From positions 320,001 through 384,000 of the forward strand of contig CAXXYE010000007.1 of NCBI GenBank assembly GCA_963674865.2: a stretch of 64,000 bases of DNA. Reading direction: 5' to 3'. The notes under the pieces are model-generated. The model was not told the DNA's origin, searched no databases, and saw nothing but the letters and a program-made list of their open reading frames with translations. The DNA comes from Candidatus Hydrogenedentota bacterium (GTDB lineage: Bacteria; Hydrogenedentota; Hydrogenedentia; Hydrogenedentales; SLHB01). Shown here piece after piece: positions 6,855 through 54,516 of the stretch; position 1 is the first letter of the stretch, and each line of letters opens with the position of its first letter. Both the position numbers and the translations under genes were made by a program.

Positions 6855-6936
6855 CGCGGCAACCGCCCGTCTTCACGACGGAGGTCACCGAAAGCACGGA
6901 GGAGAAGAGAGCGGATCTCTCCATGTCTTCCGTGCC

Positions 6937-7181
6937 CGTGGTTAGTTTGATCAGTTCCTATGCCGCGACCAGGGCTTCGCCCTGGACCCACTAAGATTGC
7001 TCGGCGCTACGCGCCTTACAATCTTAAACTACACCCCCTACCGAAGTACCTTAACCAAGGGAAAAATCCCCGCGCTACGGGCCTATGCGCGGCCTATGCT
7101 GCGCGGCCGCGCCTTTGGCCCTCCGCGCTCCGCGGCTTACGCCGCGCAAGCAACAAGGCACCAAAGCAGTAGGCAGCAAAA
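6937..7181 (-). repeat. Conserved 3' trailer of DGR-target gene, copy 1 (three GC hairpins)
   Basis: Closely similar to 33432-33677; hairpins at 6969-6985, 7087-7112, 7131-7146. Confidence 0.9.
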
Positions 7182-7304
7182 CTACGGCCTGGCGAGGCGG
7201 AACCCCAAGAGGTCGCTCCGGGTGCCCGGGTCGCGCCCGGAACGAATCGCGGATCGGCAGCTCCTCGGGCTGCCGCTCCAGCAGCCACCGCGGGCCACCC
7301 GGTA
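7182..7304 (-). other. Putative DGR variable repeat (VR1) with invariant 3' tail
   Basis: Differences from VR2/VR3 fall mostly in positions 1-2 of NNC/NGG codons; 7182-7208 identical in all three. Confidence 0.85.
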
Positions 7305-9317
7305 CGAGCCCGTACTGGGGCCCGGGGGGTCGGTTACTGAACCCGAAGGATAGGACCCGTACCAGTCCTGGCACCACTCCAAAACGTTGCCGTGCATGTC
7401 GTGCAGCCCCCAAGCATTCGGACGAACGCTCCCCACCGAAGTCGTCTTTCCCCGGTCAACCCCCTTCTTTCCTGAACCGTACGTGTAATCGCCATCGTAG
7501 TTCGCCTGCTCCGTCGAGATCGTCTCTCCAAAATAGAACGGGGTCTGGGTCCCTGCACGGCACGCATACTCCCACTCCGCCTCCGTCGGAAGACGAAACG
7601 TGCCTTGCCCTTTGGCATTAATTCTCTTGATGAACGCCTGGCAGTCGTCCCAAGAAACGTAGTAAATGGGATAATCCGCCCCTTCTCCGCGAAGCGGCCA
7701 CTCCTTGTTGGCCCTATCGCGTTGCTGACCCACTGTGTTACCCATCACCGCCTTCCACTGCGCCTGGGTAACTTCATACTTCCCCAGCCAGAACCCCTTC
7801 GTGAGCGTCACCTGGTGCTGGACCTCGTCGTCATCGCGGCCCTCCTCGCTCTCCGGGCTCCCCATCATGAAGGTTCCCGGCGGGACCCAGACCAACTCAA
7901 GTGTCACGCCGCCGCCAAGGTCGACCGTACTTGTGGTGCCTGCTTCCGGCTCGCCTTGGGACTCGTGTCGTGTGACCGTAAGAGGTCCAGCATCTGGACC
8001 TTCGTGGATTTCTGGGAGCGGTACTGCCAGTAATTCCGCAGCGCGCCCAAGAATATCATCAGTAGGGTCCGACTCTCCTCGAGGAGCATGATCATAGCTT
8101 CGACGCGTCGTCTCGCTCTTGAAGTAGTGCCATAGCCACGGTGAAACAGCAGCCAGGCAGACCAATGTTAGTGCGGCCACTACGATGAGTTTCTTGCCTC
8201 GCCGGCCAAGCGAGCCAACAAGTTTCGCCGGCGCTTCTCGCCCCTCGGCCTGTCGCCGGGCTTCTTTGGCCCGCTCCATCTCCCTGGCCCCATCTATCTC
8301 CTTGGCTCGCCGCCCCTCCTCCTCGGCTCGTTCTTCTTCGTCCTTGCGGCGTGCTTCTGCCTCCCCTTCACGCCGCTGGGCTTCGGCCTTCTGCCGGGCC
8401 GTTTCTCCGCAAAGGTCTTTGTAGAAGGCGGCGCAGTTGGCCTGGCGGTCGGTGGGCTGCTTGTCCAAGGCGGTCAAGAGGGCTTCGTTAACGTGGGCAG
8501 GGACGCCATCGATAGGCGACGGAGCCTTCAACTGGATCTGCGTGGGGATCGAGCCGGTGTGGAAAGGCGTGTCGCCGGCAAGGAGTTCGTAGACACTGGC
8601 CGCGAGGCTATATAGGTCGGCCCGGACGTCGAGCTTCTCACCCATGAGCTGCTCGGGGCTCATGTAAAGGAGCGTGCCGCTGCTAACCTCGCCCGTCACG
8701 CGGGTCTGGGTATCCTTGGCGGCCCGGGCGATGCCGAAGTCGGCCAGCTTCACATTGCCGTCGCGCCCGAGGAGCATGTTGCCGGGTTTCACGTCGCGGT
8801 GAAGGACGCCCTGGCTGTGCGCATAGTCCAGCGCCCGGGCGACGCGGCGTGCACAGGCCAGTACCTGTTCGAGCGGAAAAGGCCCGCCATACTCGGCGAG
8901 GGCGTCGGACAGGGACCGGCCGTCCACGTATTCCATGGTGATGAAATGGATGCCGACGTCCTCGTGGATATCGTACACGCCGACGATGTTGGGATGGCGC
9001 AGCTTGCGCGTGAGGGCGACCTCGCGTTTCATATCCGCGACGGCCCGCATATCCCCTATCAGTTCGGGTTTGAGGATCTTGCACGCGACCTGCTCGTCCA
9101 GGACGATGTCCCGCGCGAGCCAGACATCGCCCATACCCCCGCTCCCGACCCGGCGCACCAGTTGAAACCGTTCAAGGAGCACGGTTTCCGCCGCGAGGTC
9201 GAAAAGGGTGCGCGTGTCGCCGCTTCCCTCGACCAGCGCGACTTTCTCCCCGCACGCCGGGCAAAACGCCGCACCCTCCGGCACCTCCGCCCCACATGTT
9301 GGATTAAGGCACTTCAT
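7182..9317 (-). CDS. Zinc ribbon + Ser/Thr kinase + TM + FGE/SUMF1 (CLec-fold) domain; putative DGR target 1
   Basis: GSGGMG, HRDVKPGN, DFG; TM LIVVAALTLVCLAAVSPWLW; FMMGS, RLPTEAEWEYACRAG, NAWGLHDMHGNV, RGG..GFRLARP. Confidence 0.93.
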   Translation of the reverse strand: MKCLNPTCGAEVPEGAAFCPACGEKVALVEGSGDTRTLFDLAAETVLLERFQLVRRVGSGGMGDVWLARDIVLDEQVACKILKPELIGDMRAVADMKREVALTRKLRHPNIVGVYDIHEDVGIHFITMEYVDGRSLSDALAEYGGPFPLEQVLACARRVARALDYAHSQGVLHRDVKPGNMLLGRDGNVKLADFGIARAAKDTQTRVTGEVSSGTLLYMSPEQLMGEKLDVRADLYSLAASVYELLAGDTPFHTGSIPTQIQLKAPSPIDGVPAHVNEALLTALDKQPTDRQANCAAFYKDLCGETARQKAEAQRREGEAEARRKDEEERAEEEGRRAKEIDGAREMERAKEARRQAEGREAPAKLVGSLGRRGKKLIVVAALTLVCLAAVSPWLWHYFKSETTRRSYDHAPRGESDPTDDILGRAAELLAVPLPEIHEGPDAGPLTVTRHESQGEPEAGTTSTVDLGGGVTLELVWVPPGTFMMGSPESEEGRDDDEVQHQVTLTKGFWLGKYEVTQAQWKAVMGNTVGQQRDRANKEWPLRGEGADYPIYYVSWDDCQAFIKRINAKGQGTFRLPTEAEWEYACRAGTQTPFYFGETISTEQANYDGDYTYGSGKKGVDRGKTTSVGSVRPNAWGLHDMHGNVLEWCQDWYGSYPSGSVTDPPGPSTGSYRVARGGCWSGSPRSCRSAIRSGRDPGTRSDLLGFRLARP

Positions 9318-33223: not shown

Positions 33224-33431
33224 GACCCCGCTCCTTTCCTCTAGGGATGCCGTGAAATCGTCTTGCCATGGAAGGAGCAAGGCCCGTGCCGGGAAAGGTG
33301 TGACAGGCGGGTCACAGGAGAATCAGACTGCCGGCAGCCCTCTCCGCGTTGCTCGGCGTCCTCTGCAGCTCTGCGTTTGGATTTTTTTTAGCGCCGAGAT
33401 GCGGAGTTCGCAAAGGAGCGCAGAGGAATCA

Positions 33432-33677
33432 CGTGGTTAACTTGATCAGTTCCTATGCCGCGGCCAGGGCTTCGCCCTGGACCCACTAAGATTGCTCGGT
33501 GCGACGCACCTCACAATCTCAAACAACATCCCCCTCCGAAGCACCTTAACCAGGGAAAAACACCCCCGCGCTACGGGCCTGTGCGCGGCCTATGCTACGC
33601 GGCCGCGCTCTTGGCCCTTCGCGCTTCGCGGCTTACGCCGCGCAAGCAACAAAGCCGCAAAGCAGTAAGCAGCAAAA
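33432..33677 (-). repeat. Conserved 3' trailer of DGR-target gene, copy 2
   Basis: Matches 6937-7181; hairpins include 33583-33608 and 33627-33642. Confidence 0.9.
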
Positions 33678-33800
33678 CTACGGCCTGGCGAGGCGGAACC
33701 CCAAGCGGCTGCGCCGGTAGCCCGGGACGACCCTGAAACGATTCGCGGAACGGCAGTACCACGGATTGAGGGACCAGCTGCCACCACGGAGCACCCGGTA
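33678..33800 (-). other. Putative DGR variable repeat (VR2)
   Basis: Same NNC/NGG variation pattern; invariant 3' tail. Confidence 0.85.
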
Positions 33801-35732
33801 CGAGCCTGTGCTGGGGCCCGTGGGGTCGGTTACTGAACCCGAAGGATAGTCCCCGTACCAGTCCTGGCACCACTCCAAAACGTTACCAATCATGTCGTAT
33901 AAGCCAAAGGCGTTGGGGCGAAAACTCCCAACTGGCGCCGTCACCTTATGGCCGTCCGTCGTGTCAGCAGCGTCCCAGGGGTGGTTGAACTCCGCCTTCC
34001 CTGTTCGGTCATAGACGTTTGCGTAGTTGCCCATCGTTCCGTCGTCGTCCCCCCAGTAACGCACCGTATCCGTCCCGGCACGACACGCATATTCCCACTG
34101 CGCCTCCGTCGGCAACGTGAAACCCTCGCCCGTCCGCTCCGAAAGCCACTTGCAGAATGCCTGAGCATCTTCCCAAGAAACATACACCGCAGGTTGTCGG
34201 TCGCCGTCCAGGCTGTGGCCTGCGTATTCCTTGCTCGAATGATCAGCCTTGAAACGCCGGTACTGGGCATTCGTCACCTCATACTTGCCCATCCAGAAGC
34301 CCTTTGAAATTGTCACCCGGTGCCGCGGATGTTCGTCCGTGTAGTATTCCGCTTTGCCGTCGTACTTCGATGCCACCTGCTCGGCGCTTAGCTTGGACCC
34401 CATCATGAAGTCCCCAGGCGGAATCCACACCAGCTCGAGCGTCACACCCCCGCCAAGGTCGACCGTCTTGATGTCACCGGGCGTGGGCTGTCGCTCAGTC
34501 TGTTGCGACGGTTGCCTCGAGGCAGCGGGCGCGGCCGTTGTCGATGCCGGGCCTTGCCCTGGGTCATCACGCGCCGCCCGGCCCTGCTGGCCAGAGGTCT
34601 CAGAAGAGGCCGCCCCTGCAAGGCCGTTATCTTCCGGCCCCGCGGGAGCGGGGCCCTCCCGGCGGAGGATAAAGGGCACAGCCAGCGCGAGCATCACAAC
34701 AGCGGCGATAATCAAGAACATGCGCCTCTTCGGCGCAGCCTTTGCGGTTAGCGCCGGTGGCTCCGGCTGTCGTTGGCGCGGCTCTTGTATCTCCCTCGGC
34801 TGCGCGACACCGTTACCTGTGCGGCTGCGGCCTGAACCTCCGGACAACGCCTCCTGTGTGGTGCTTTCGCCCTCACGAACACCTTGACGAATGAGCCTCT
34901 GCACAACCTTTGCCGACTCGGGTCGTTCCTCAGGCGATGGAGCGAGCAGCTCGAGCAGGAGGTCGTCGAGCCATCGAGGAAGGCTACTATTGAACTCACT
35001 GGGCAACCTGAACCGGCCCAGGGGTAACCGCCCGGTCAGGCATTGGTAAATCACCACGCCCAACGAGTACAAGTCGGCCCGCCGCGTCGCCTCCTCCCCC
35101 TGGAGCTGTTCGGGGGCCATATATACGGCCGTGCCGACGGCTGCACTCGACTGCGTGAACCGGTTTGAACCCACGATCCGCGCCAGGCCGAAGTCCAGCA
35201 ACTTCACGGCGCCGTCCCGGCAAACAAAGATGTTCTGTGGTTTGATGTCTCGATGTATCGTCGTGCGGTGCGCGTAAGCCAGTGCCTCCAAAACACCGGC
35301 CATGACCCGCAACGTCTTGTCTAGGGACAGCGTGCCCCGCTCACTGAGGATTTCATCGAGGCTGTGGCCGTCGAGATACTCCATGGTCAGGAAACGAATG
35401 CCTGCGTGCTCACCCAGGTCATAGGTTGTCACGATATTCGGGTGAGAGAGCTTCTGGGCAATGTGGGCTTCCTGCACGAACCGCTGCTGAGCGCGTTCGC
35501 TCTTCATGAGGGACGGCAGGATGACCTTGAGCGCCTTGAGTTCGCCCTCCATGAGCTGGTCTCGGACCTTGTACACCAGGCCCATGCCCCCGCCGCCAAC
35601 GGCCTCGACCACCTCGAAACGATCGGCGACAACCTCGCCCGCCGCGAAAACGACGCCCTCGTCCTTCGCCGTGAACAGCGTCGGGTGGTCGCCAAGACTA
35701 TCGATGTTGAATGAACGTTCCATGTCCCCCAA
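33678..35732 (-). CDS. Ser/Thr kinase + TM + FGE/SUMF1 domain; putative DGR target 2
   Basis: GGGGMG, HRDIKPQN, DFG; TM MFLIIAAVVMLALAVPFIL; LPTEAQWEYACRAG; ends RGGSW..GFRLARP. Confidence 0.93.
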   Translation of the reverse strand: MGDMERSFNIDSLGDHPTLFTAKDEGVVFAAGEVVADRFEVVEAVGGGGMGLVYKVRDQLMEGELKALKVILPSLMKSERAQQRFVQEAHIAQKLSHPNIVTTYDLGEHAGIRFLTMEYLDGHSLDEILSERGTLSLDKTLRVMAGVLEALAYAHRTTIHRDIKPQNIFVCRDGAVKLLDFGLARIVGSNRFTQSSAAVGTAVYMAPEQLQGEEATRRADLYSLGVVIYQCLTGRLPLGRFRLPSEFNSSLPRWLDDLLLELLAPSPEERPESAKVVQRLIRQGVREGESTTQEALSGGSGRSRTGNGVAQPREIQEPRQRQPEPPALTAKAAPKRRMFLIIAAVVMLALAVPFILRREGPAPAGPEDNGLAGAASSETSGQQGRAARDDPGQGPASTTAAPAASRQPSQQTERQPTPGDIKTVDLGGGVTLELVWIPPGDFMMGSKLSAEQVASKYDGKAEYYTDEHPRHRVTISKGFWMGKYEVTNAQYRRFKADHSSKEYAGHSLDGDRQPAVYVSWEDAQAFCKWLSERTGEGFTLPTEAQWEYACRAGTDTVRYWGDDDGTMGNYANVYDRTGKAEFNHPWDAADTTDGHKVTAPVGSFRPNAFGLYDMIGNVLEWCQDWYGDYPSGSVTDPTGPSTGSYRVLRGGSWSLNPWYCRSANRFRVVPGYRRSRLGFRLARP

Positions 35733-36205: not shown

Positions 36206-36601
36206 TCATCCGATGGACACCCGTCGCAGCCCGTCAATCATCCGCGGGACGTTGAAGTTCATCAGGTAGCCACGTCTGAAACCCAGCAATCGCAAGTAGC
36301 TCAGGATTTGGGCCATGTGGAGTTCGTTCAACTCTGATACGCATTTCAACTCGAGCAGCAGACAGTTCTCGACGATCACGTCCGCCCGAAAACCAAGCCC
36401 CAGATCGTGTCCGCGGTACGTGACGGGGATCTCGACTTGTGTGGAAGCAGCGATCCCAAGGCCCTTCAATTCAAATGCCAGCGCTTTCTCGTATACGGAC
36501 TCCAGTAATCCAGGTCCGAGCTTCCGGTGCACCGTAATCGCCGCGCCAATAACACGTTCGCACAGGGCATCCGGGCAATCGAGTAGTCCCGCGTTGCTCA
36601 T
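36206..36601 (-). CDS. GxxExxY protein (PD-(D/E)xK nuclease superfamily)
   Basis: VHRKLGPGLLESVYEKAL, FRADVIVE, LELK, HMAQILSYL, GYLMNFN; 131 aa from ATG at 36601. Confidence 0.93.
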   Translation of the reverse strand: MSNAGLLDCPDALCERVIGAAITVHRKLGPGLLESVYEKALAFELKGLGIAASTQVEIPVTYRGHDLGLGFRADVIVENCLLLELKCVSELNELHMAQILSYLRLLGFRRGYLMNFNVPRMIDGLRRVSIG

Positions 36602-36672
36602 AGTTTCAAGATCCTTATGACCACGGAGATAAGGGCACGGAGAACACGGAGAGAGGCCCCTCTTTCTTCCTC

Positions 36673-36773
36673 CGTGGTTAACTTGATCAGTTCCTATGCC
36701 GCGCTTCTGGCCCTTCGCGCTTCGCGGCTTACGCCGCGTATGCCGCAAGGCCGCAAAGCAGTAAGCAGCAAAA
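36673..36773 (-). repeat. Conserved 3' trailer of DGR-target gene, copy 3 (internally deleted)
   Basis: Both ends match copies 1 and 2; lacks 145 bp; keeps hairpin 36723-36738. Confidence 0.88.
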
Positions 36774-36896
36774 CTACGGCCTGGCGAGGCGGAACCCCAA
36801 GCTGCAGTGCCAGCCGCCCGGGACGCTCCTGCTACGATTCGCGGAACGGCAGAGCCTCGGGGCGTCGAACCAGCTGCCACCGCGGAACACCCGGCG
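36774..36896 (-). other. Putative DGR variable repeat (VR3)
   Basis: Same NNC/NGG variation pattern; invariant 3' tail. Confidence 0.85.
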
Positions 36897-39641
36897 CGAG
36901 CCACTACTGGGGCCCGTGGGGTCGGTTACGGAACCCGAAGGATAGTCCCCGTACCAATCCTGGCACCACTCCCAAACGTTACCGTGCATATCGTAAAGCC
37001 CCCAAGCATTCGCGCTCTTCCCGCCCACGCTATGAGTCTTCCAATCGCTGTTGCCGCTATACCATCCGTACCTACTCAGTGTGGAAGACGAATCTCCAAA
37101 GCAATACGCCGTCGTACTACCCGCACGGCACGCGTACTCCCACTCCGCCTCCGTCGGTAACCGGAAGGTGCCCTGTCCTTTAGTATTCAACTTCTTGACG
37201 AAGGCCTGGCAGTCGTCCCAAGAAACTTGCTCCACAGGTAGGTCGTCGCCCTTGAAGTGCGACGGATTATTACCCATTACCGCCTTCCACTGCGCCTGGG
37301 TTACCTCGTACTTGCCCAGCCAGAAACCCTTCGTGAGCGCTACCCGGTGCTGGGTCTCATCATCATCCCGGTTTTCCTCGCCCGCCGGGCTCCCCATCGT
37401 GAAGTCCCCAGGCGGAATCCACACCAGTTCGAGCGTCACACCCCCACCAAGGTCGACGGATCGCGTTTGACCCGCCTTAGGCGCCTGAGCCAATAGCTTG
37501 CGCTCGGGCGTCACCTCGACGGCCTTGGCATATTGCCCCTCGGCCTTGCCATACTGCTCGGAGGCCGCGCTGTAGTCGGCGGCGGCGAAGGCCTCCTCAG
37601 CCGATGACCATGCCCGATCGCCTGCGCCCACTTCGTCCTCGGCATACTTCCGCTCGTCCGTGCCGATCTGTTTCTGCGACGCGAGCGCGTCTTTCCGGGC
37701 CGTGTCGGCGCTCTTCTTCGCTGCAGCGAGGCGCTCACCAGCGATCTTCGCAGCCTCTGCGTATTTCGCCTCTGACTGCTGGTACAGGTCCTTAGCCTTA
37801 TCGAAATCCGTCTCCTTGCCCGCTTCGGACATCACGCCGTCTGCGCTGGCCAGTTCGCGGGACGCATACTTCCTCACCGTATCCGTCTGGGCCTTGGCCC
37901 GCGCCCCCTCGGCCGCTTTGCGTGCCGCGGCTACAATCGCCTCGCCCTGCTGCGCCGTTTCCGAGGCCGCGAGCTTGAACAGGCCCGCCGCTTGCTTGAG
38001 CAACTCGGCGCCCTTCACGCGGTCCTCAGTCAGCAGCGCTTGTTCCTCGACCTCGATGGCCTGTTCGTAGCGCGTCTTGGCCCATGTCGCCCCGTCGAGG
38101 GCGTCGGCTGCTTCCTTTTCCTTCTCGAGGTCGGCCTTGGCCTTATCAAATGCCGCAATCTCAGCAGATAACCTCTCGCCTTGCGCCTGCGCCTGGGCGA
38201 ACAGCGCCTCCGCCTCCTGGTACTTCTCCACGGCGGCGTCAAATGCCCTCAGCCTGTCATGGGCTTCCCCGTCCTTCAGGGCCTCTGAGCCCGCTTTGAA
38301 CAGTTCCTCCGCATGTTGCCCCCCCCCGGCGTCCTTAGCGGCTTGCTGGGCCGTCACGGCAGCTACCTTCGCCGAGCTGGCGTCTGCGGCCGTGGCGGAA
38401 TCAGGGACTGTCCCAAGCGAGTCCGCCGAAGGCGGACGAGACGGGACTGTCCCTAATTCCCGCGAAGCAGCGGGGCCATCCCCTGCCATGTCCGTCTCGA
38501 TAGGCTGGGAGGGTCGCGGCCCTGCACGTCCGTCCGGCCCTGCGGGAGCGGGGCTCTCCCGACGCCCAATCAGGAGCACGGCCAAGGCGAAGACGACAAC
38601 AGCGGCAACCCCCAGAACCGCCCATTTTGTCTTGCCTGTTCGTTGCGCCGCCCTGTCGAGCGCGTCGCGTAGAGCGGCGGCGGATTCATAGCGATCCTCC
38701 GCGCGGGGTTGAAGGCAGCACATAACCACCGAGTCAAGGGACTTGGGAACACCGGCAGCCACACGCGAGGGCAGGCCCACCGCGCCCACCGGGATCTCTC
38801 CCGTGAGCATCTGGTACAGGACCACCCCCAGGCTGTAGATATCCGCGCGGGCGTCGAGTTCTCGGAGGTGGATGCTCTGCTCGGGGGCCTGGTAATAGGC
38901 CGTGCCCAGCGCCATGCTCGACTTCGTCAGCCGGCCCGGCGACATGAGTTTCGCCAGGCCGAAGTCCAGCACCTTGATGGCGCCGTCGGGCCGGATCATG
39001 ATGTTCTGCGGCTTGAGGTCGCGGTGGATGGTGTTCTGGTGAGCGTATTCAAGGGCGTCGCAGAGCTGGCGGGTGATATCGAGCGCCTCATCGACGGGCA
39101 GCCGCCCGCCGCGTTCCTGTAATACGCGATGCAGCGTCTTCCCTTCGACATACTCCATCGTGAAGAAGTAGAAACCCCGGCGCTTGTCCGCCGCCAGGTC
39201 GTGCACCCGCACGATGTTGTCATGGCTCAACTGCTGGCTGATGGCCACCTCGGAGCGGAAGCGTTGCCGGGCCGTTTCGCTCGCCAGTAGCGAGGGCAGC
39301 ATCACCTTGAGGGCTTTCTCCAGGCCCAGGTGGCGGTCCTTGACGTGGTAGACGGCACCCATGCCCCCGAACCCGAGCTGCTTCACCACCTCGAACCGTT
39401 TCGCCACCACATCGCCCGGCTTCAGCAGGACGGATTGCTGCTCACGAATCAGGTCCGGGTCGAGTTCACTCCCCTGTGGCAGGAACGGCTTGAGCTGATC
39501 CTCCGCCCACGTCGGCGAATCTCCCGCCGACACCATCCCCGGGACAAACTCCTCCCCCGGCGCGCCGGCTCCCTCGCCGTCGCCTTCCCACCGCGTGGGA
39601 TTGTCGCCTTGACTGCTTATTTCTGGCGGTTCATGTGCCAT
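36774..39641 (-). CDS. Ser/Thr kinase + TM + Ala-rich helical stalk + FGE/SUMF1 domain; putative DGR target 3
   Basis: Kinase nearly identical to 16173-18938; TM WAVLGVAAVVVFALAVLLIG; RLPTEAEWEYACRAG; ends GFRLARP. Confidence 0.93.
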   Translation of the reverse strand: MAHEPPEISSQGDNPTRWEGDGEGAGAPGEEFVPGMVSAGDSPTWAEDQLKPFLPQGSELDPDLIREQQSVLLKPGDVVAKRFEVVKQLGFGGMGAVYHVKDRHLGLEKALKVMLPSLLASETARQRFRSEVAISQQLSHDNIVRVHDLAADKRRGFYFFTMEYVEGKTLHRVLQERGGRLPVDEALDITRQLCDALEYAHQNTIHRDLKPQNIMIRPDGAIKVLDFGLAKLMSPGRLTKSSMALGTAYYQAPEQSIHLRELDARADIYSLGVVLYQMLTGEIPVGAVGLPSRVAAGVPKSLDSVVMCCLQPRAEDRYESAAALRDALDRAAQRTGKTKWAVLGVAAVVVFALAVLLIGRRESPAPAGPDGRAGPRPSQPIETDMAGDGPAASRELGTVPSRPPSADSLGTVPDSATAADASSAKVAAVTAQQAAKDAGGGQHAEELFKAGSEALKDGEAHDRLRAFDAAVEKYQEAEALFAQAQAQGERLSAEIAAFDKAKADLEKEKEAADALDGATWAKTRYEQAIEVEEQALLTEDRVKGAELLKQAAGLFKLAASETAQQGEAIVAAARKAAEGARAKAQTDTVRKYASRELASADGVMSEAGKETDFDKAKDLYQQSEAKYAEAAKIAGERLAAAKKSADTARKDALASQKQIGTDERKYAEDEVGAGDRAWSSAEEAFAAADYSAASEQYGKAEGQYAKAVEVTPERKLLAQAPKAGQTRSVDLGGGVTLELVWIPPGDFTMGSPAGEENRDDDETQHRVALTKGFWLGKYEVTQAQWKAVMGNNPSHFKGDDLPVEQVSWDDCQAFVKKLNTKGQGTFRLPTEAEWEYACRAGSTTAYCFGDSSSTLSRYGWYSGNSDWKTHSVGGKSANAWGLYDMHGNVWEWCQDWYGDYPSGSVTDPTGPSSGSRRVFRGGSWFDAPRLCRSANRSRSVPGGWHCSLGFRLARP

Positions 39642-39747
39642 TTCGGAAATTGCCCACGTATCTCTCCTTGACGACCGAACCGCACTCTGTCTGGGCCACA
39701 AACTCTAAGTAAGCGTCGCCGCTCTTGAGCAAGGACCTCGTTCTTAC

Positions 39748-41494: not shown

Positions 41495-42646
41495 CTATGC
41501 CGCCATATGCTCGTCGCGAAACTTCGCCAGCTTGGCCAGTTCCGCAGGGCGGATTGACGGCCGCACCCGCTGCAGCGCGGCGTCGAAGTCGGCCATGGTA
41601 ACAGGCTCCGGGTCGTTGACGGACCCGAAAGCTCCGTCGTGACGCTGGAGCGTGCGCTTCAGAGCCGCCATCTTTGCTTCGACGCAAAGGCTGTCGCGCT
41701 CCCCGGCGATGTCGGCGCCGGAGTAGCCTTCACAGCGGCCCGCTAGAGTCGCGTAGTCCAGACCTTCTACAGGCGTATTATCCATCGCCCGCTCGATCAT
41801 GTAAGCTCGAGCGTTTTGATCCGGCAGCCCCACGTAGACCAGCCGGCCAAAACGTCCCGGCCGTGTCGCCGCCTCGTCCATTAGCCACGGCCTGTTGGTC
41901 GCCCCTAGGAGAATGACGCAGTTCCGTGTGGGGTCCAGTCCGTTGATGAGTTGAAGTAATTGCGGTACAACCCGGGCCATAACGGATGAATTAGTCGCCG
42001 CCCGTTTGGGGAACAAGGCCTCCGCTTCGTCAAAGAAGATCACGGTGCGTGGGTGGCTCCTCGCCGCATCAAAGAGCTGGCCAAGCAATTGCTCCGTTTC
42101 CCCGAACCATTTGCTCAGCACGCGCTTCATTTCGACCGGGATGAACGCCGCGTCGACCTCGCCCGCGATGGCCCGCGCCATGAAGGTTTTGCCCGTTCCC
42201 GGGGGACCATACATCAGCACCCCCGAGCCAGGCCGAAGCCGGTACTCCGCGTACACGTCGGCGTGCTTAATGGGCAGGATGATGTGGCTGTGAATAACCT
42301 CCTTGACCTCATCCATGCCCGCCACGTCGTCTAAACGCGTGTCCGGCCGCTCCGTGGCAACCCACGCTCCGGGTTCCCGTGTGACCTCGCCCGTCCCGTC
42401 GCTCGTGACCCGGGTAGCCGGCTTACCCCCTCGGTTCCGGGTCAGTGCTTTGTCGCCTTGCGCCTCGTAACGCTTGGCAAGGCGGATGAGACTGCCCCGT
42501 GTGCGTCCCGCACTGTTCTGAGCCATGCACAGACTCATGCGGGAGGCGTTGAAGAGGTTGTAGGCCACCATGCGCCAGTCGTTGCGGTCCAACGCCGTTT
42601 TGACTTGGCCTTCAGCCAGCCGTCGTTCTCGTTCGTAGTCCATCAC
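41495..42646 (-). CDS. Single-ring AAA+ ATPase with MIT-like N-terminus (Vps4/CdvC-like candidate)
   Basis: GPPGTGKT, SKWFGETE, IFFDEAE, GATNRPW..RPGRF; ~70-aa helical N-terminus; C-terminal VTMADFDAALQRVRPS..KFRDEH. Confidence 0.85.
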   Translation of the reverse strand: MMDYERERRLAEGQVKTALDRNDWRMVAYNLFNASRMSLCMAQNSAGRTRGSLIRLAKRYEAQGDKALTRNRGGKPATRVTSDGTGEVTREPGAWVATERPDTRLDDVAGMDEVKEVIHSHIILPIKHADVYAEYRLRPGSGVLMYGPPGTGKTFMARAIAGEVDAAFIPVEMKRVLSKWFGETEQLLGQLFDAARSHPRTVIFFDEAEALFPKRAATNSSVMARVVPQLLQLINGLDPTRNCVILLGATNRPWLMDEAATRPGRFGRLVYVGLPDQNARAYMIERAMDNTPVEGLDYATLAGRCEGYSGADIAGERDSLCVEAKMAALKRTLQRHDGAFGSVNDPEPVTMADFDAALQRVRPSIRPAELAKLAKFRDEHMAA

Positions 42647-42655
42647 GCGTCTCCC

Positions 42656-43291
42656 TTAAGCCAGCGCTTCATCCATCTTGCGCTCCAGGTCGGCGTCCAT
42701 ACGGGCCAAGCCGGCTTCCTGACCATCCGCGGCGTCGCCCTCGATAGCGCCTGCCGCCTCGTTCACCACTTGGGCGTAGGCGTCCTGTTCCTCCTCGTCA
42801 AGCGCCGCGCTCGACGCGGGCGCCGCCACATCGACCAAACTGGTCTCCGTCCATGGCTCGACCAGATCCTGGTTGCGCTGGGCAAGCTCCGTAAGCCGTT
42901 CGCGGACCTCATCCGGATCGACGCTTTCCCGGGCGAGCTCCTCGATTCGTGCCACGACCTCCATCCCGCGGACAAATTCGTCATAGTTGTCCTTTACCTG
43001 AACCTGTTCCAGCGTGTACTCCATATTGTTGACCGCCAGCGTGCGCGCAACGGCTTCCTTATCAATCTGCACGAGTTGCCGCACCATCTGTTTGGCCAGC
43101 CCGGGCTTGCCCTGACGCTCATAAACCACGGCTTTGCGCCTCATCTCCTCGGCCTTGGCCTGGCGCTTCGCCACACTGCGGCGTTCGCGACGGACCGCGG
43201 TCCTGGCCTTGGTAAGCGCCTGTCGGCGCCTTCGGGCGCGCTCGGCCTCCCGGCGGCGCCGCGACTTCAGTAGGTGGCTCCAAGTACTCAT
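42656..43291 (-). CDS. Snf7/ESCRT-III-like helical protein
   Basis: 211 aa; very basic N-half, acidic C-half; KAVVYERQGKPGLAKQMVRQLVQ; tail DADLERKMDEALA (MIM1-like). Confidence 0.7.
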   Translation of the reverse strand: MSTWSHLLKSRRRREAERARRRRQALTKARTAVRRERRSVAKRQAKAEEMRRKAVVYERQGKPGLAKQMVRQLVQIDKEAVARTLAVNNMEYTLEQVQVKDNYDEFVRGMEVVARIEELARESVDPDEVRERLTELAQRNQDLVEPWTETSLVDVAAPASSAALDEEEQDAYAQVVNEAAGAIEGDAADGQEAGLARMDADLERKMDEALA

Positions 43292-43315
43292 GTCCCTTAT
43301 CCTCCACATTGGCCG

Positions 43316-53427: not shown

Positions 53428-54516
53428 CTACGCAGGTGGGTCGCCGAAATCGGGCACGGGCAGCAGGATGCCGCCTTGGCGGGCGGACTCGACGCCCACC
53501 AGGCCGGGGGCGTTGAATCGCGCCGCCGTCCACACGTTCGACAGGGGCATACGATCCTCGACCAGGCTCGTGACGAACTCATGAACCAGATGCGGATGCG
53601 ACCCGCCATGGCCCTGGTCGTTGAGTTCGGCCAGTTCACGGGGCAACCGCTCGGAATAGTCCGGGAAGGCGACGGGCTGCCGGCCTTTCAGATCCGCCCA
53701 CTGATACGGCGGCTGTTCGAGACTCCCCTTCGTGCCGTAGAAGCGGAACGCCTCGCATCCAGGATGGCCAATCCGACGAAACTCGCAGACGCGCAGAACG
53801 GATCCATCGCTCATCTGCAATAGCGCCACCTGATTGGCGATGTCGTTCCCATGCGGACGCGTCTTGTTAAAATAGGGGTCGCCGTCAACGGCCATGCCCA
53901 TCGACGTCACCGCCACCGCGTGGGCGCGCGTCACGCTCATGACGCCGCCGGTCGAGTGGGTGATGTACATGAAAGGCAGCGTGTCGCCCAGAGCGTCCTC
54001 CCAACCCGGGCCGTGCCGCCATGCCCAGACTTCCTCGAGTCCATCGCTCCAGTCGTGCATGTACTCCGCCTCGGCGTAGACGATCTGGCCGAAGGCGCCC
54101 GCCGCGTGCTGCTCGCGCGCCCAGATGACTTCCTGCCGGAAGCAACTCGTCTCCAGCACCATGTACGTCCGCCCCGTCTCCTTGACCGCCCGCACAAGTT
54201 CCCTCAGCTCCTCCATGCTGTACGCCGGCGGCACGGCACTGCACACGTGCTTCCCCGCCCGTAGCCCCTGGACGGCCTGGGGCGCGTGCATCCAGTGCTG
54301 TGTCAGGATCGCGAGCGCGTCCACATCCTCCCGCGCGCAGATTGCGTCCAGCGACGCCTCCGTATCCGTGATGCCGTGTTTTTCGACATTCTCAGCGAGT
54401 TTTTCGAGATTTTGATCACAGAGCACGACGTGGTCGACGTGCGGATGATGTTCGAACAACCGGATGAAAGACTGCGCAAAAGCCCCCGTCCCCACAATGC
54501 CTATGCAAATGCCCAT
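53428..54516 (-). CDS. Gfo/Idh/MocA-family oxidoreductase
   Basis: IGIVGTGAF, HAPQAVQGLRAGKHVCSAVP, YITHS, GHGGSH. Confidence 0.9.
   Translation of the reverse strand: MGICIGIVGTGAFAQSFIRLFEHHPHVDHVVLCDQNLEKLAENVEKHGITDTEASLDAICAREDVDALAILTQHWMHAPQAVQGLRAGKHVCSAVPPAYSMEELRELVRAVKETGRTYMVLETSCFRQEVIWAREQHAAGAFGQIVYAEAEYMHDWSDGLEEVWAWRHGPGWEDALGDTLPFMYITHSTGGVMSVTRAHAVAVTSMGMAVDGDPYFNKTRPHGNDIANQVALLQMSDGSVLRVCEFRRIGHPGCEAFRFYGTKGSLEQPPYQWADLKGRQPVAFPDYSERLPRELAELNDQGHGGSHPHLVHEFVTSLVEDRMPLSNVWTAARFNAPGLVGVESARQGGILLPVPDFGDPPA

Follow-up and report, generated by a model that had tools for sequence, protein, structure and literature searches.

A hairpin-bearing trailer behind kinase-linked CLec genes of a Hydrogenedentota bacterium is a candidate target spacer of an HRDC-type DGR

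Introduction

In DGRs of the BPP-1 type, the transcript of a template repeat (TR) is reverse transcribed with adenine errors and the cDNA replaces the variable repeat (VR) of a target gene, starting at the IMH (PMC3240598). The available part of that account describes hairpins downstream of the VR as needed for BPP-1 homing; the downstream hairpin raises efficiency and can be transplanted, together with the IMH, to a foreign gene (PMC3240598). Phage DGR hairpins have stems of 7-10 bp and GRNA loops and lie 4-34 bp from the VR (PMC3240598). In BPP-1-type homing hairpins it is the structure that counts for retrohoming, and the sequence of the stem does not. According to the accessible portion of another study, homing works best if the lagging-strand template is the strand to which the cDNA pairs, and a proposed role of the stem-loop is to lengthen the open state (PMC12875486). 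A confident inverted repeat was reported in only 34% of DGRs, as far as the available text goes (PMC5758913).

HRDC-containing DGRs have left targets behind in strains without a core (PMC5758913, PMC4891356), cis-acting cruciform/IMH features have been suggested to activate remote targets (PMC7517822), and MITE-like repeats occur at the loci of multi-target DGRs in multicellular bacteria (10.1101/2023.09.22.558884). Multiple, remote and orphan targets (PMC5758913, PMC4891356) and kinase-CLec targets (PMC7517822) are already known. RT-centred surveys miss some DGR targets, a limit stated in the accessible part of PMC8144416. How remote DGR targets arise and are marked has been proposed in the literature and rarely mapped. 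Here we describe a chromosomal locus of a Candidatus Hydrogenedentota bacterium and compare it with these systems.

Results

A conserved trailer follows the variable repeats of four kinase-CLec genes

The window analysed here is a stretch of 64,000 nucleotides (G000:C7:320001-384000, where G000 is the whole genome of 5.79 Mb in 11 contigs, with 97.5% completeness); unprefixed positions are those of the window. Three genes in it are alike over the final ~210 coding bases and in the sequence beyond the stop. A preliminary description had reported this post-stop trailer as conserved and non-coding in all three, which is confirmed, and a fourth copy was found ~4 kb before the window (G000:C7:315954-316169), behind a fourth kinase-CLec gene (C7:316170-319094). 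The copies had been placed 26-30 kb apart; this holds for copy 1 against copies 2 and 3, whereas the latter two are separated by 3.1 kb. All four matches of a genome-wide search lie directly 3' of the CLec VR of a Ser/Thr kinase gene. The trailer stands behind 4 of the 26 FGE/CLec genes of G000, the same four that carry the VR pattern, and behind none of the other 22.

Over 246 nt, copies 1 and 2 share 89% identity; among the full copies the range is 89-92%. Copy 3 retains only trailer nucleotides 1-76 and the final 31, owing to a 144-nt deletion between two 6-nt repeats; the deletion joint (6961 to 7106) is also present in contigs of two of four public sequencing runs (X1 and X2, both of one sample). 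The first hairpin (H1) had been located 35 nt after each of the three stops in the window, and its positions are exact, as are those of an 8-bp stem and of a 7-bp stem with a GAA loop (Table 1). The 16-nt H1 occurs four times in 5.79 Mb with one mismatch allowed, always in a trailer copy; as a chance baseline, 384 of 5,787,798 genome positions are the start of some 6-bp all-GC stem with a 4-nt loop. The constant stop-to-stem distance is one inherited event, not four independent ones. Rfam gave no match at the trailer and only tRNA at eight related loci. Two trailer patterns had no hit in viral contigs, a blastn search of plasmids and phages with the trailer gave no match, and among the sequencing-run matches listed there is no RNA run containing the trailer.

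Table 1. Coordinates of the target genes, repeats and trailer elements in the window.
Feature	Position	Strand	Remarks
Copy 1 target, 711 aa	7182..9317	-	zinc ribbon, Ser/Thr kinase (PF00069), membrane-like segment, C-terminal FGE-type CLec (PF03781)
Variable repeat, copy 1	7189..7310	-	35 of 122 columns vary across the four copies
Invariant 3' gene end: IMH-like region and stop	7182..7208	-	27 nt identical in 4/4 copies
Pyrimidine-rich tail, imperfect ~7-nt repeats	7147..7181	-	directly after the stop; aligns with the tails of 11 related spacers
H1, 6-bp GC stem, GTAA loop	7131..7146	-	35 nt from the stop; invariant in 4/4 copies
H2, long interrupted helix, GNA opposite GNA at base	7072..7128	-	contains the 8-bp stem 7087-7112; stems invariant in 3/3 full copies
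H3	6994..7024	-	one compensatory C-G to T-A change between copies; outer arms in common with L057 and L051
H4, 7-bp stem, GAA loop	6969..6985	-	196 nt from the stop; in relatives precedes a T-run and the HRDC gene
End segment common to copies 1-3, absent from the fourth	6937..6968	-	runs into a REP-like palindrome
Copy 2 target	33678..35732	-	kinase, membrane-like segment, chimeric CLec; last 69 codons (from ~33887) are the cassette
Variable repeat, copy 2	33685..33806	-	codon and adenine pattern as in the other copies
Full trailer, copy 2	33432..33677	-	H1 33627-33642, H2 33568-33624, H4 33464-33480
Copy 3 target	36774..39701	-	kinase, membrane-like segment, long helical linker, CLec
Variable repeat, copy 3	36781..36902	-	codon and adenine pattern as in the other copies
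Shortened trailer, copy 3	36673..36773	-	retains the tail and H1 (36723-36738); lacks most of H2, H3 and H4

A different REP-like palindrome follows each trailer (6862-6945, 33330-33440 and 36617-36680 in the window, and G000:C7:315870-315930), and a GxxExxY gene (TIGR04256) stands after copy 3 at ~36206-36600. Similar repeats, or else a GxxExxY or transposase-like gene, are found in relatives as interruptions of DGR cores and at the ends of remote copies.

The repeats ahead of the trailer vary like DGR targets

PF03781 ends one residue short of the stop in all four target proteins. The 35 variable columns fall nearly all at codon positions 1-2, and the variable codons mostly end in C. Within the last 41 codons, each pair of copies shows 18-27 differences at positions 1-2, as against 1-3 at position 3. 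Compared with seven relatives' TRs in ungapped register, which serve as proxy templates and not as the cognate TR, 27-31 of the 35 variable columns are opposite A, as against 5-8 of the 87 invariant ones. Non-adenine differences accumulated among the VRs are few, and all four VR reading frames are open. By this codon and adenine pattern the repeats appear to be DGR-type variable repeats. The copy 1 protein has a hydrophobic window near residue 375. From their domain order, the targets are probably membrane receptors with a diversified outer CLec tip.

The IMH had been sought in the trailer. In relatives, VR/TR homology ends before the trailer, at a place equivalent to the invariant gene end, and by this position we place the IMH within the coding sequence, in the VR's constant 3' end.

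Two further CLec genes of G000 have ends like DGR repeats: G000:C2:231093-231746 (+) and C3:168028-168663 (-), with nhmmer E values of 1.6e-6 and 3.6e-3. The end of the C2 gene resembles relatives' DGR targets with short spacers, without tail or hairpin. Both genes are possibly older orphan targets.

The trailer corresponds to the spacer between target and HRDC gene in related DGRs

In the class, 12 of 133 genomes have an Avd match above the cut-off. The DGRs of relatives run in the order target-VR, spacer, (HRDC), avd, RT, TR, with the HRDC assignment confirmed by PF00570, and fall into two groups. One has a short spacer with a single hairpin. The other has a spacer of ~200 nt before HRDC, built of a pyrimidine-rich tail of ~7-nt repeats, a long H2, a G-rich H4 and a T-run. 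The window trailer aligns with the long-spacer group through tail and H2, and its 3' end is 88% identical over 42-43 nt to the pre-HRDC spacers of two loci, L051 and L057. The L051 spacer (in G025) runs into a truncated HRDC start. In complete long-spacer DGRs, TR/VR mismatches at A and at other bases number 24:2, 20:5 and 22:1, and neither tail nor trailer follows any of five relatives' template repeats. The tail and H2 alignment, the pre-HRDC identity, the adenine mismatches of the long-spacer DGRs and the tail-free TRs together argue that the trailer is the target-to-HRDC spacer of an HRDC-Avd-RT-TR DGR. The T-run and HRDC gene of relatives' spacers stand where, in the window, the 6937..6968 segment meets the REP-like palindrome. 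The expectation that the TR lacks the trailer is thus borne out in relatives (5/5), while the cognate TR was not found in G000.

L057, the closest spacer at the trailer 3' end, sits in a MAG labelled Clostridiaceae, which suggests cross-phylum transfer or misbinning. At L040 (G002:C1) and L080 a GxxExxY gene and repeats have inserted into the DGR RT and split it, and several remote targets have trailers of varied length; this DGR is caught in decay. In none of the relatives could a remote target be paired with a TR from its own contig.

The pyrimidine tail and the second hairpin are the conserved parts

The perfect 6-bp stem of H1 is peculiar to G000 and absent as such from the related long spacers. 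Since relatives have the same spacer without it, H1 is not the conserved element. Its earlier equation with the known type of DGR hairpin likewise fails on dimensions: 6 bp and GTAA here, as against 7-10 bp and GRNA in the available text of PMC3240598.

The helix homologous to H2 in ten relatives, chosen for similar H2 length, is 96% paired, and 6 of its 20 pairs have changed on both sides in a compensatory manner. This covariation score was reached by none of 500 shuffles, and slid controls were only 27-50% paired. Such compensatory changes are consistent with a hairpin whose structure matters. Across the elements, H2 is mostly complete and sometimes cut in its 3' arm, whereas H4 was found by pattern in 11 of 35. 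The tail is present in every examined copy that has upstream sequence and a CLec end, and is retained even in the shortest remote copies. As judged by these comparisons, the pyrimidine repeat tail and the long second hairpin are what the phylum conserves.

Within the three full copies of G000, 2 of 81 stem columns vary (one compensatory pair), as against 27 of 131 others (Fisher p 1e-4), a contrast inflated because the stems were picked by eye from the same sequences. RNAalifold gave no credible consensus for a 13-sequence alignment, in which helix registers differ. The GNA opposite GNA at the base of H2 may form sheared G-A pairs. A count of GNA-flanked H2 helices (15/35) was discarded as evidence because the score favoured the motif. 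Among 30 DGR spacers, which are kin, all 19 GNA triloop hairpins lie on the sense strand and none on the antisense, with ~2 expected on each. Mini-hairpins of the GNA and GNNA kind show unusual stability as DNA and a lower one as RNA, according to the accessible part of PMC13037366. This stability favours, without proving, action of the hairpins as single-stranded DNA.

Remote copies in relatives frequently extend no further than H2 or end within it, and one of them, L083, keeps the tail only. Together with copy 3, which has lost H2-H4, these truncated copies indicate that most of the 245 nt is not essential. Copy 3 retains just the tail and H1 and shows no less diversification than the other copies; its deletion may have come before or after the last homing event.

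VR and trailer moved together between CLec genes

The front part of the copy 2 CLec is 43-45% identical to that of the other three targets, and a non-target paralog is about as close, at 42%. Over the last 69 residues of copy 2, identity to the same three targets is 75-77%, and the identity of the DNA jumps at about position -210, at a GNVxEW motif. In copy 2, the end of a different CLec gene was thus replaced by VR and trailer. Copy 3 and the fourth copy are whole-gene paralogs, with 80% identity over the entire length of the two genes. Copy 1 has another kinase (36-38% identity) and a patchwork CLec. The moved unit comprises ~210 coding bases, from GNVxEW to the stop, and 216-245 non-coding bases. 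The earlier proposal of a travelling cassette of VR and trailer therefore stands in so far as the unit reached a different kinase-CLec gene; its extension to any upstream gene is too broad, since every recipient seen was already a CLec gene. Recombination at the conserved GNVxEW motif would be the simplest route of spread, and the REP-like palindromes flanking the trailer 3' ends may have taken part in the movement.

Strong trailer matches across the phylum mostly stand behind CLec genes

A trailer-only model was built from the tail and H2 of 13 training sequences, without coding bases. It gave 49 matches in 23 of 135 genomes of the phylum, 12 of them training sequences; the relatives are kin, so these counts overstate independence. 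Twenty-one non-training matches reached E<1e-5, of which 17 follow a CLec end (one of these ends has an internal stop), two follow decayed CLec remnants and two lie at contig ends. The 16 weaker matches comprise two after CLec ends, one at a contig end, one isolated H2, two unrelated and ten in a single genome, G010, where the three inspected belong to a multicopy repeat unrelated to CLec genes. A DGR RT search of 10 of the 22 other trailer-bearing genomes found a close match in two and none in eight, these being fragmented MAGs. Orphan cassettes seem common in the phylum.

The assembly yields no DGR core

No fifth site with at least 62% of 91 invariant columns exists in G000. An nhmmer search with a TR-plus-downstream model returned six sites, all CLec gene ends and none a TR, and an AAC-rich scan of G000 likewise found no TR. 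PF00078 yields two RTs in G000, neither of the DGR class: they are at most 27% identical to nine relatives' DGR RTs, which match nothing else there, and have weak DRT/group II matches and no DGR neighbours. These RTs (L001:223-2322, 699 aa; L002:760-2310, 516 aa) have a defence-type or unclassified look and stay below all family cut-offs. Avd (NF033474) and the HRDC accessory protein (tblastn and profile search) had no match in G000. A degenerate VR pattern, which would also catch a TR, had no hit in viral and genome contigs; its sole metagenome match, an unrelated CLec gene with a different downstream region, was rejected. The matches listed for contigs of the four public runs include the genome's own copies and no TR-like record; the copy 3 VR itself is also unlisted over that stretch, so that the listing has little bearing on a hidden TR. 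With the core (TR, RT, Avd, HRDC) not found in the assembly, the four copies look like orphan targets; at 11 contigs and 97.5% completeness, its absence is likely rather than proven.

Other features of the window and genome

Within the kinase cluster, 41495-43309 (-) encodes an ESCRT-III/Vps4-like gene pair, consisting of a Snf7-like protein (PF03357, E 1e-5, just under the cut-off) and a Vps4/CdvC-like AAA ATPase with Vps4_C; a limited literature search found no paper on such a pair. The segment 46422-52610 (-) holds a primase-like gene, an unknown gene, a tyrosine integrase and two copies of a 219-nt repeat built from a genome-wide REP family, and is a possible integrated element, 7 kb from copy 3. 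A genomic-island boundary at a tRNA-Gly call (53650-53736) was rejected, as the call falls within an oxidoreductase gene, occurs only once and is probably spurious. Elsewhere in the genome, G000:C11:57958-61864 carries a cluster of 15 same-strand tRNA genes in 4 kb, resembling the tRNA arrays of mobile elements.

Discussion

We read the trailer as the spacer of a chromosomal HRDC-type DGR of Hydrogenedentota that carried cis-acting target elements, spread among kinase-CLec genes and stayed behind as part of four orphan targets once the core was lost, and we hold this to be somewhat more probable than otherwise. The spacer would carry the cis side of the target, namely the repeat tail beside the IMH and several GNA-capped hairpins, which most likely fold in the single-stranded sense strand and would favour cDNA insertion. 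The cassette would have passed between neighbouring kinase-CLec genes in two ways: duplication of a whole gene would account for copy 3 and the fourth copy, and recombination at GNVxEW for copy 2. One template repeat would then have rewritten each VR at its adenines, and the core would have been lost later. We infer, as parts of this reading, a homing function of tail and hairpins, action of the trailer as DNA rather than RNA and a true loss of the core; intact stems in a genome without a core also fit a function other than homing.

By GC skew the minus strand is leading-like across C7 120-400 kb, which would make all four targets co-directional. A dnaA gene at C7:311167 without a skew switch leaves the orientation of replication ambiguous. 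This gene (G000:C7:311167-312528) lies ~4 kb from the fourth target, and the skew switches near C7 110 kb and 400 kb.

A DGR that is still live, with its core in an assembly gap or on an unbinned element and acting in trans on the four remote targets, would be compatible with the 11 contigs and 97.5% completeness of the assembly and with the four open frames and intact stems; trans-acting remote targets are known, according to the available part of PMC5758913. The VRs also differ at only 1-3 of 41 third positions per pair, compared with 5-11 differences across trailer bases 1-76, which is what continued homogenisation of the VRs by a single TR would produce. Such a system is nevertheless unlikely in our judgement. 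No remnant of TR, RT, Avd or HRDC appears in 5.79 Mb, the degenerate VR pattern is nil in viral and genome contigs with one unrelated metagenome match, eight of the ten other trailer-bearing genomes searched, fragmented MAGs, have no close DGR RT, and the VRs have picked up a few non-adenine differences.

We are similarly doubtful that the trailer is a passenger, that is, an old leader, promoter or terminator RNA of the HRDC-avd-RT operon which was copied together with the VR and kept for stabilising or terminating the kinase mRNA, with only the IMH and perhaps a few bases mattering for homing. In relatives, H4 and then a T-run directly precede HRDC or avd. None of 200 shuffles of the 216-nt trailer folds as well as the trailer itself, whose fold is as good in RNA (z -5.6) as in DNA (z -4.7). 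Remote copies truncate at many points. On the other side, H1, H2 and H4 of G000 have no T-run and no sigma-70-like promoter was found at the trailer; the dominant loops are GNA triloops, not GNRA tetraloops, and are far more stable as DNA (PMC13037366, in its available part). Tail and H2, moreover, stay at VR ends in 17 of 19 strong new matches, whereas H4, the element beside the downstream gene, is found in 11 of 35. The specific alternative of an intrinsic terminator, raised in the preliminary description, also fares poorly: copy 1 has a single weak terminator-like site (7081-7069), with 0.6 expected by chance.

A generic REP/MITE, or ordinary recent paralogy without DGR involvement, could draw on the REP-like palindromes that follow three of four trailers compared with 0.8% of random windows (a post-hoc pattern), on the paralogy of copy 3 and the fourth gene and on the ten weak G010 matches (three inspected), but is already largely refuted and very improbable, given only four trailer copies in the genome, all after VRs, the 17 of 19 strong phylum matches behind CLec ends, variation concentrated at codon positions 1-2 opposite TR adenines, homology to spacers inside complete DGRs and no Rfam, phage or plasmid match.

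The locus offers a natural series, with a sharp graft boundary, a natural deletion in copy 3 and many truncated copies in relatives. This series points to tail and H2, and not to the nearest short hairpin, as the conserved cis element, and makes H2 a candidate DNA ligand for the uncharacterised HRDC accessory protein. The trailer-only model finds DGR targets missed by RT-centred surveys. More speculatively, and with little confidence on our part, tail and H2 with its GNA/GNA base might represent an undescribed class of DGR target recognition: folded single-stranded DNA, possibly an HRDC ligand, that is portable by recombination at GNVxEW and outlasts its core, so that genomes would keep landing pads on receptor kinases for a transient, horizontally arriving core that diversifies them and departs.

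A literature search that covered few subscription papers returned no account of a long spacer with several hairpins and a repeat tail; the available parts of PMC5737381, PMC8144416 and 10.64898/2026.09.22.753630 contain nothing on such long-spacer anatomy, and no paper was found that combines 'Hydrogenedent' with a DGR term.

Among the described systems, BPP-1 resembles this locus, within the accessible text of PMC3240598, in having the VR at the 3' end of a CLec gene, a constant GC-rich end and, downstream, GC-rich inverted repeats with a G..A loop on the sense strand that are absent after the TR. BPP-1 needs 24 bp with one 8-bp stem, whereas the spacer here has 216-245 nt with a repeat tail and four hairpins. 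Neither H1 (6 bp, GTAA, ~41 nt from the end of VR/TR homology) nor H4 (7 bp, 3-nt loop, 196 nt from the stop) has the BPP-1-type pattern, and unlike BPP-1 the locus is chromosomal, with no core in the assembly. The HRDC DGRs of 'architecture C', the Treponema denticola type, are alike in the HRDC gene found in relatives' cores and in their dispersed CLec targets (PMC5758913, PMC4891356, as far as available). They differ in that the relatives have HRDC together with Avd and a TR that follows the RT, and in that the targets of G000 are membrane Ser/Thr kinases, not lipoproteins; a long structured spacer is not described for this type in the available parts of the same two papers. Cyanobacterial DGRs likewise place CLec domains on Ser/Thr kinases and disperse targets within the genome, according to the accessible portion of PMC7517822. 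In contrast to those and to the DGRs of multicellular bacteria, the present locus belongs to another phylum and to a genome without a DGR RT. For both of these groups cis features are proposed and unmapped in the available texts (PMC7517822, 10.1101/2023.09.22.558884), whereas the unit described here is delimited, from GNVxEW to H4. The finding remains an anatomical refinement of a known system.
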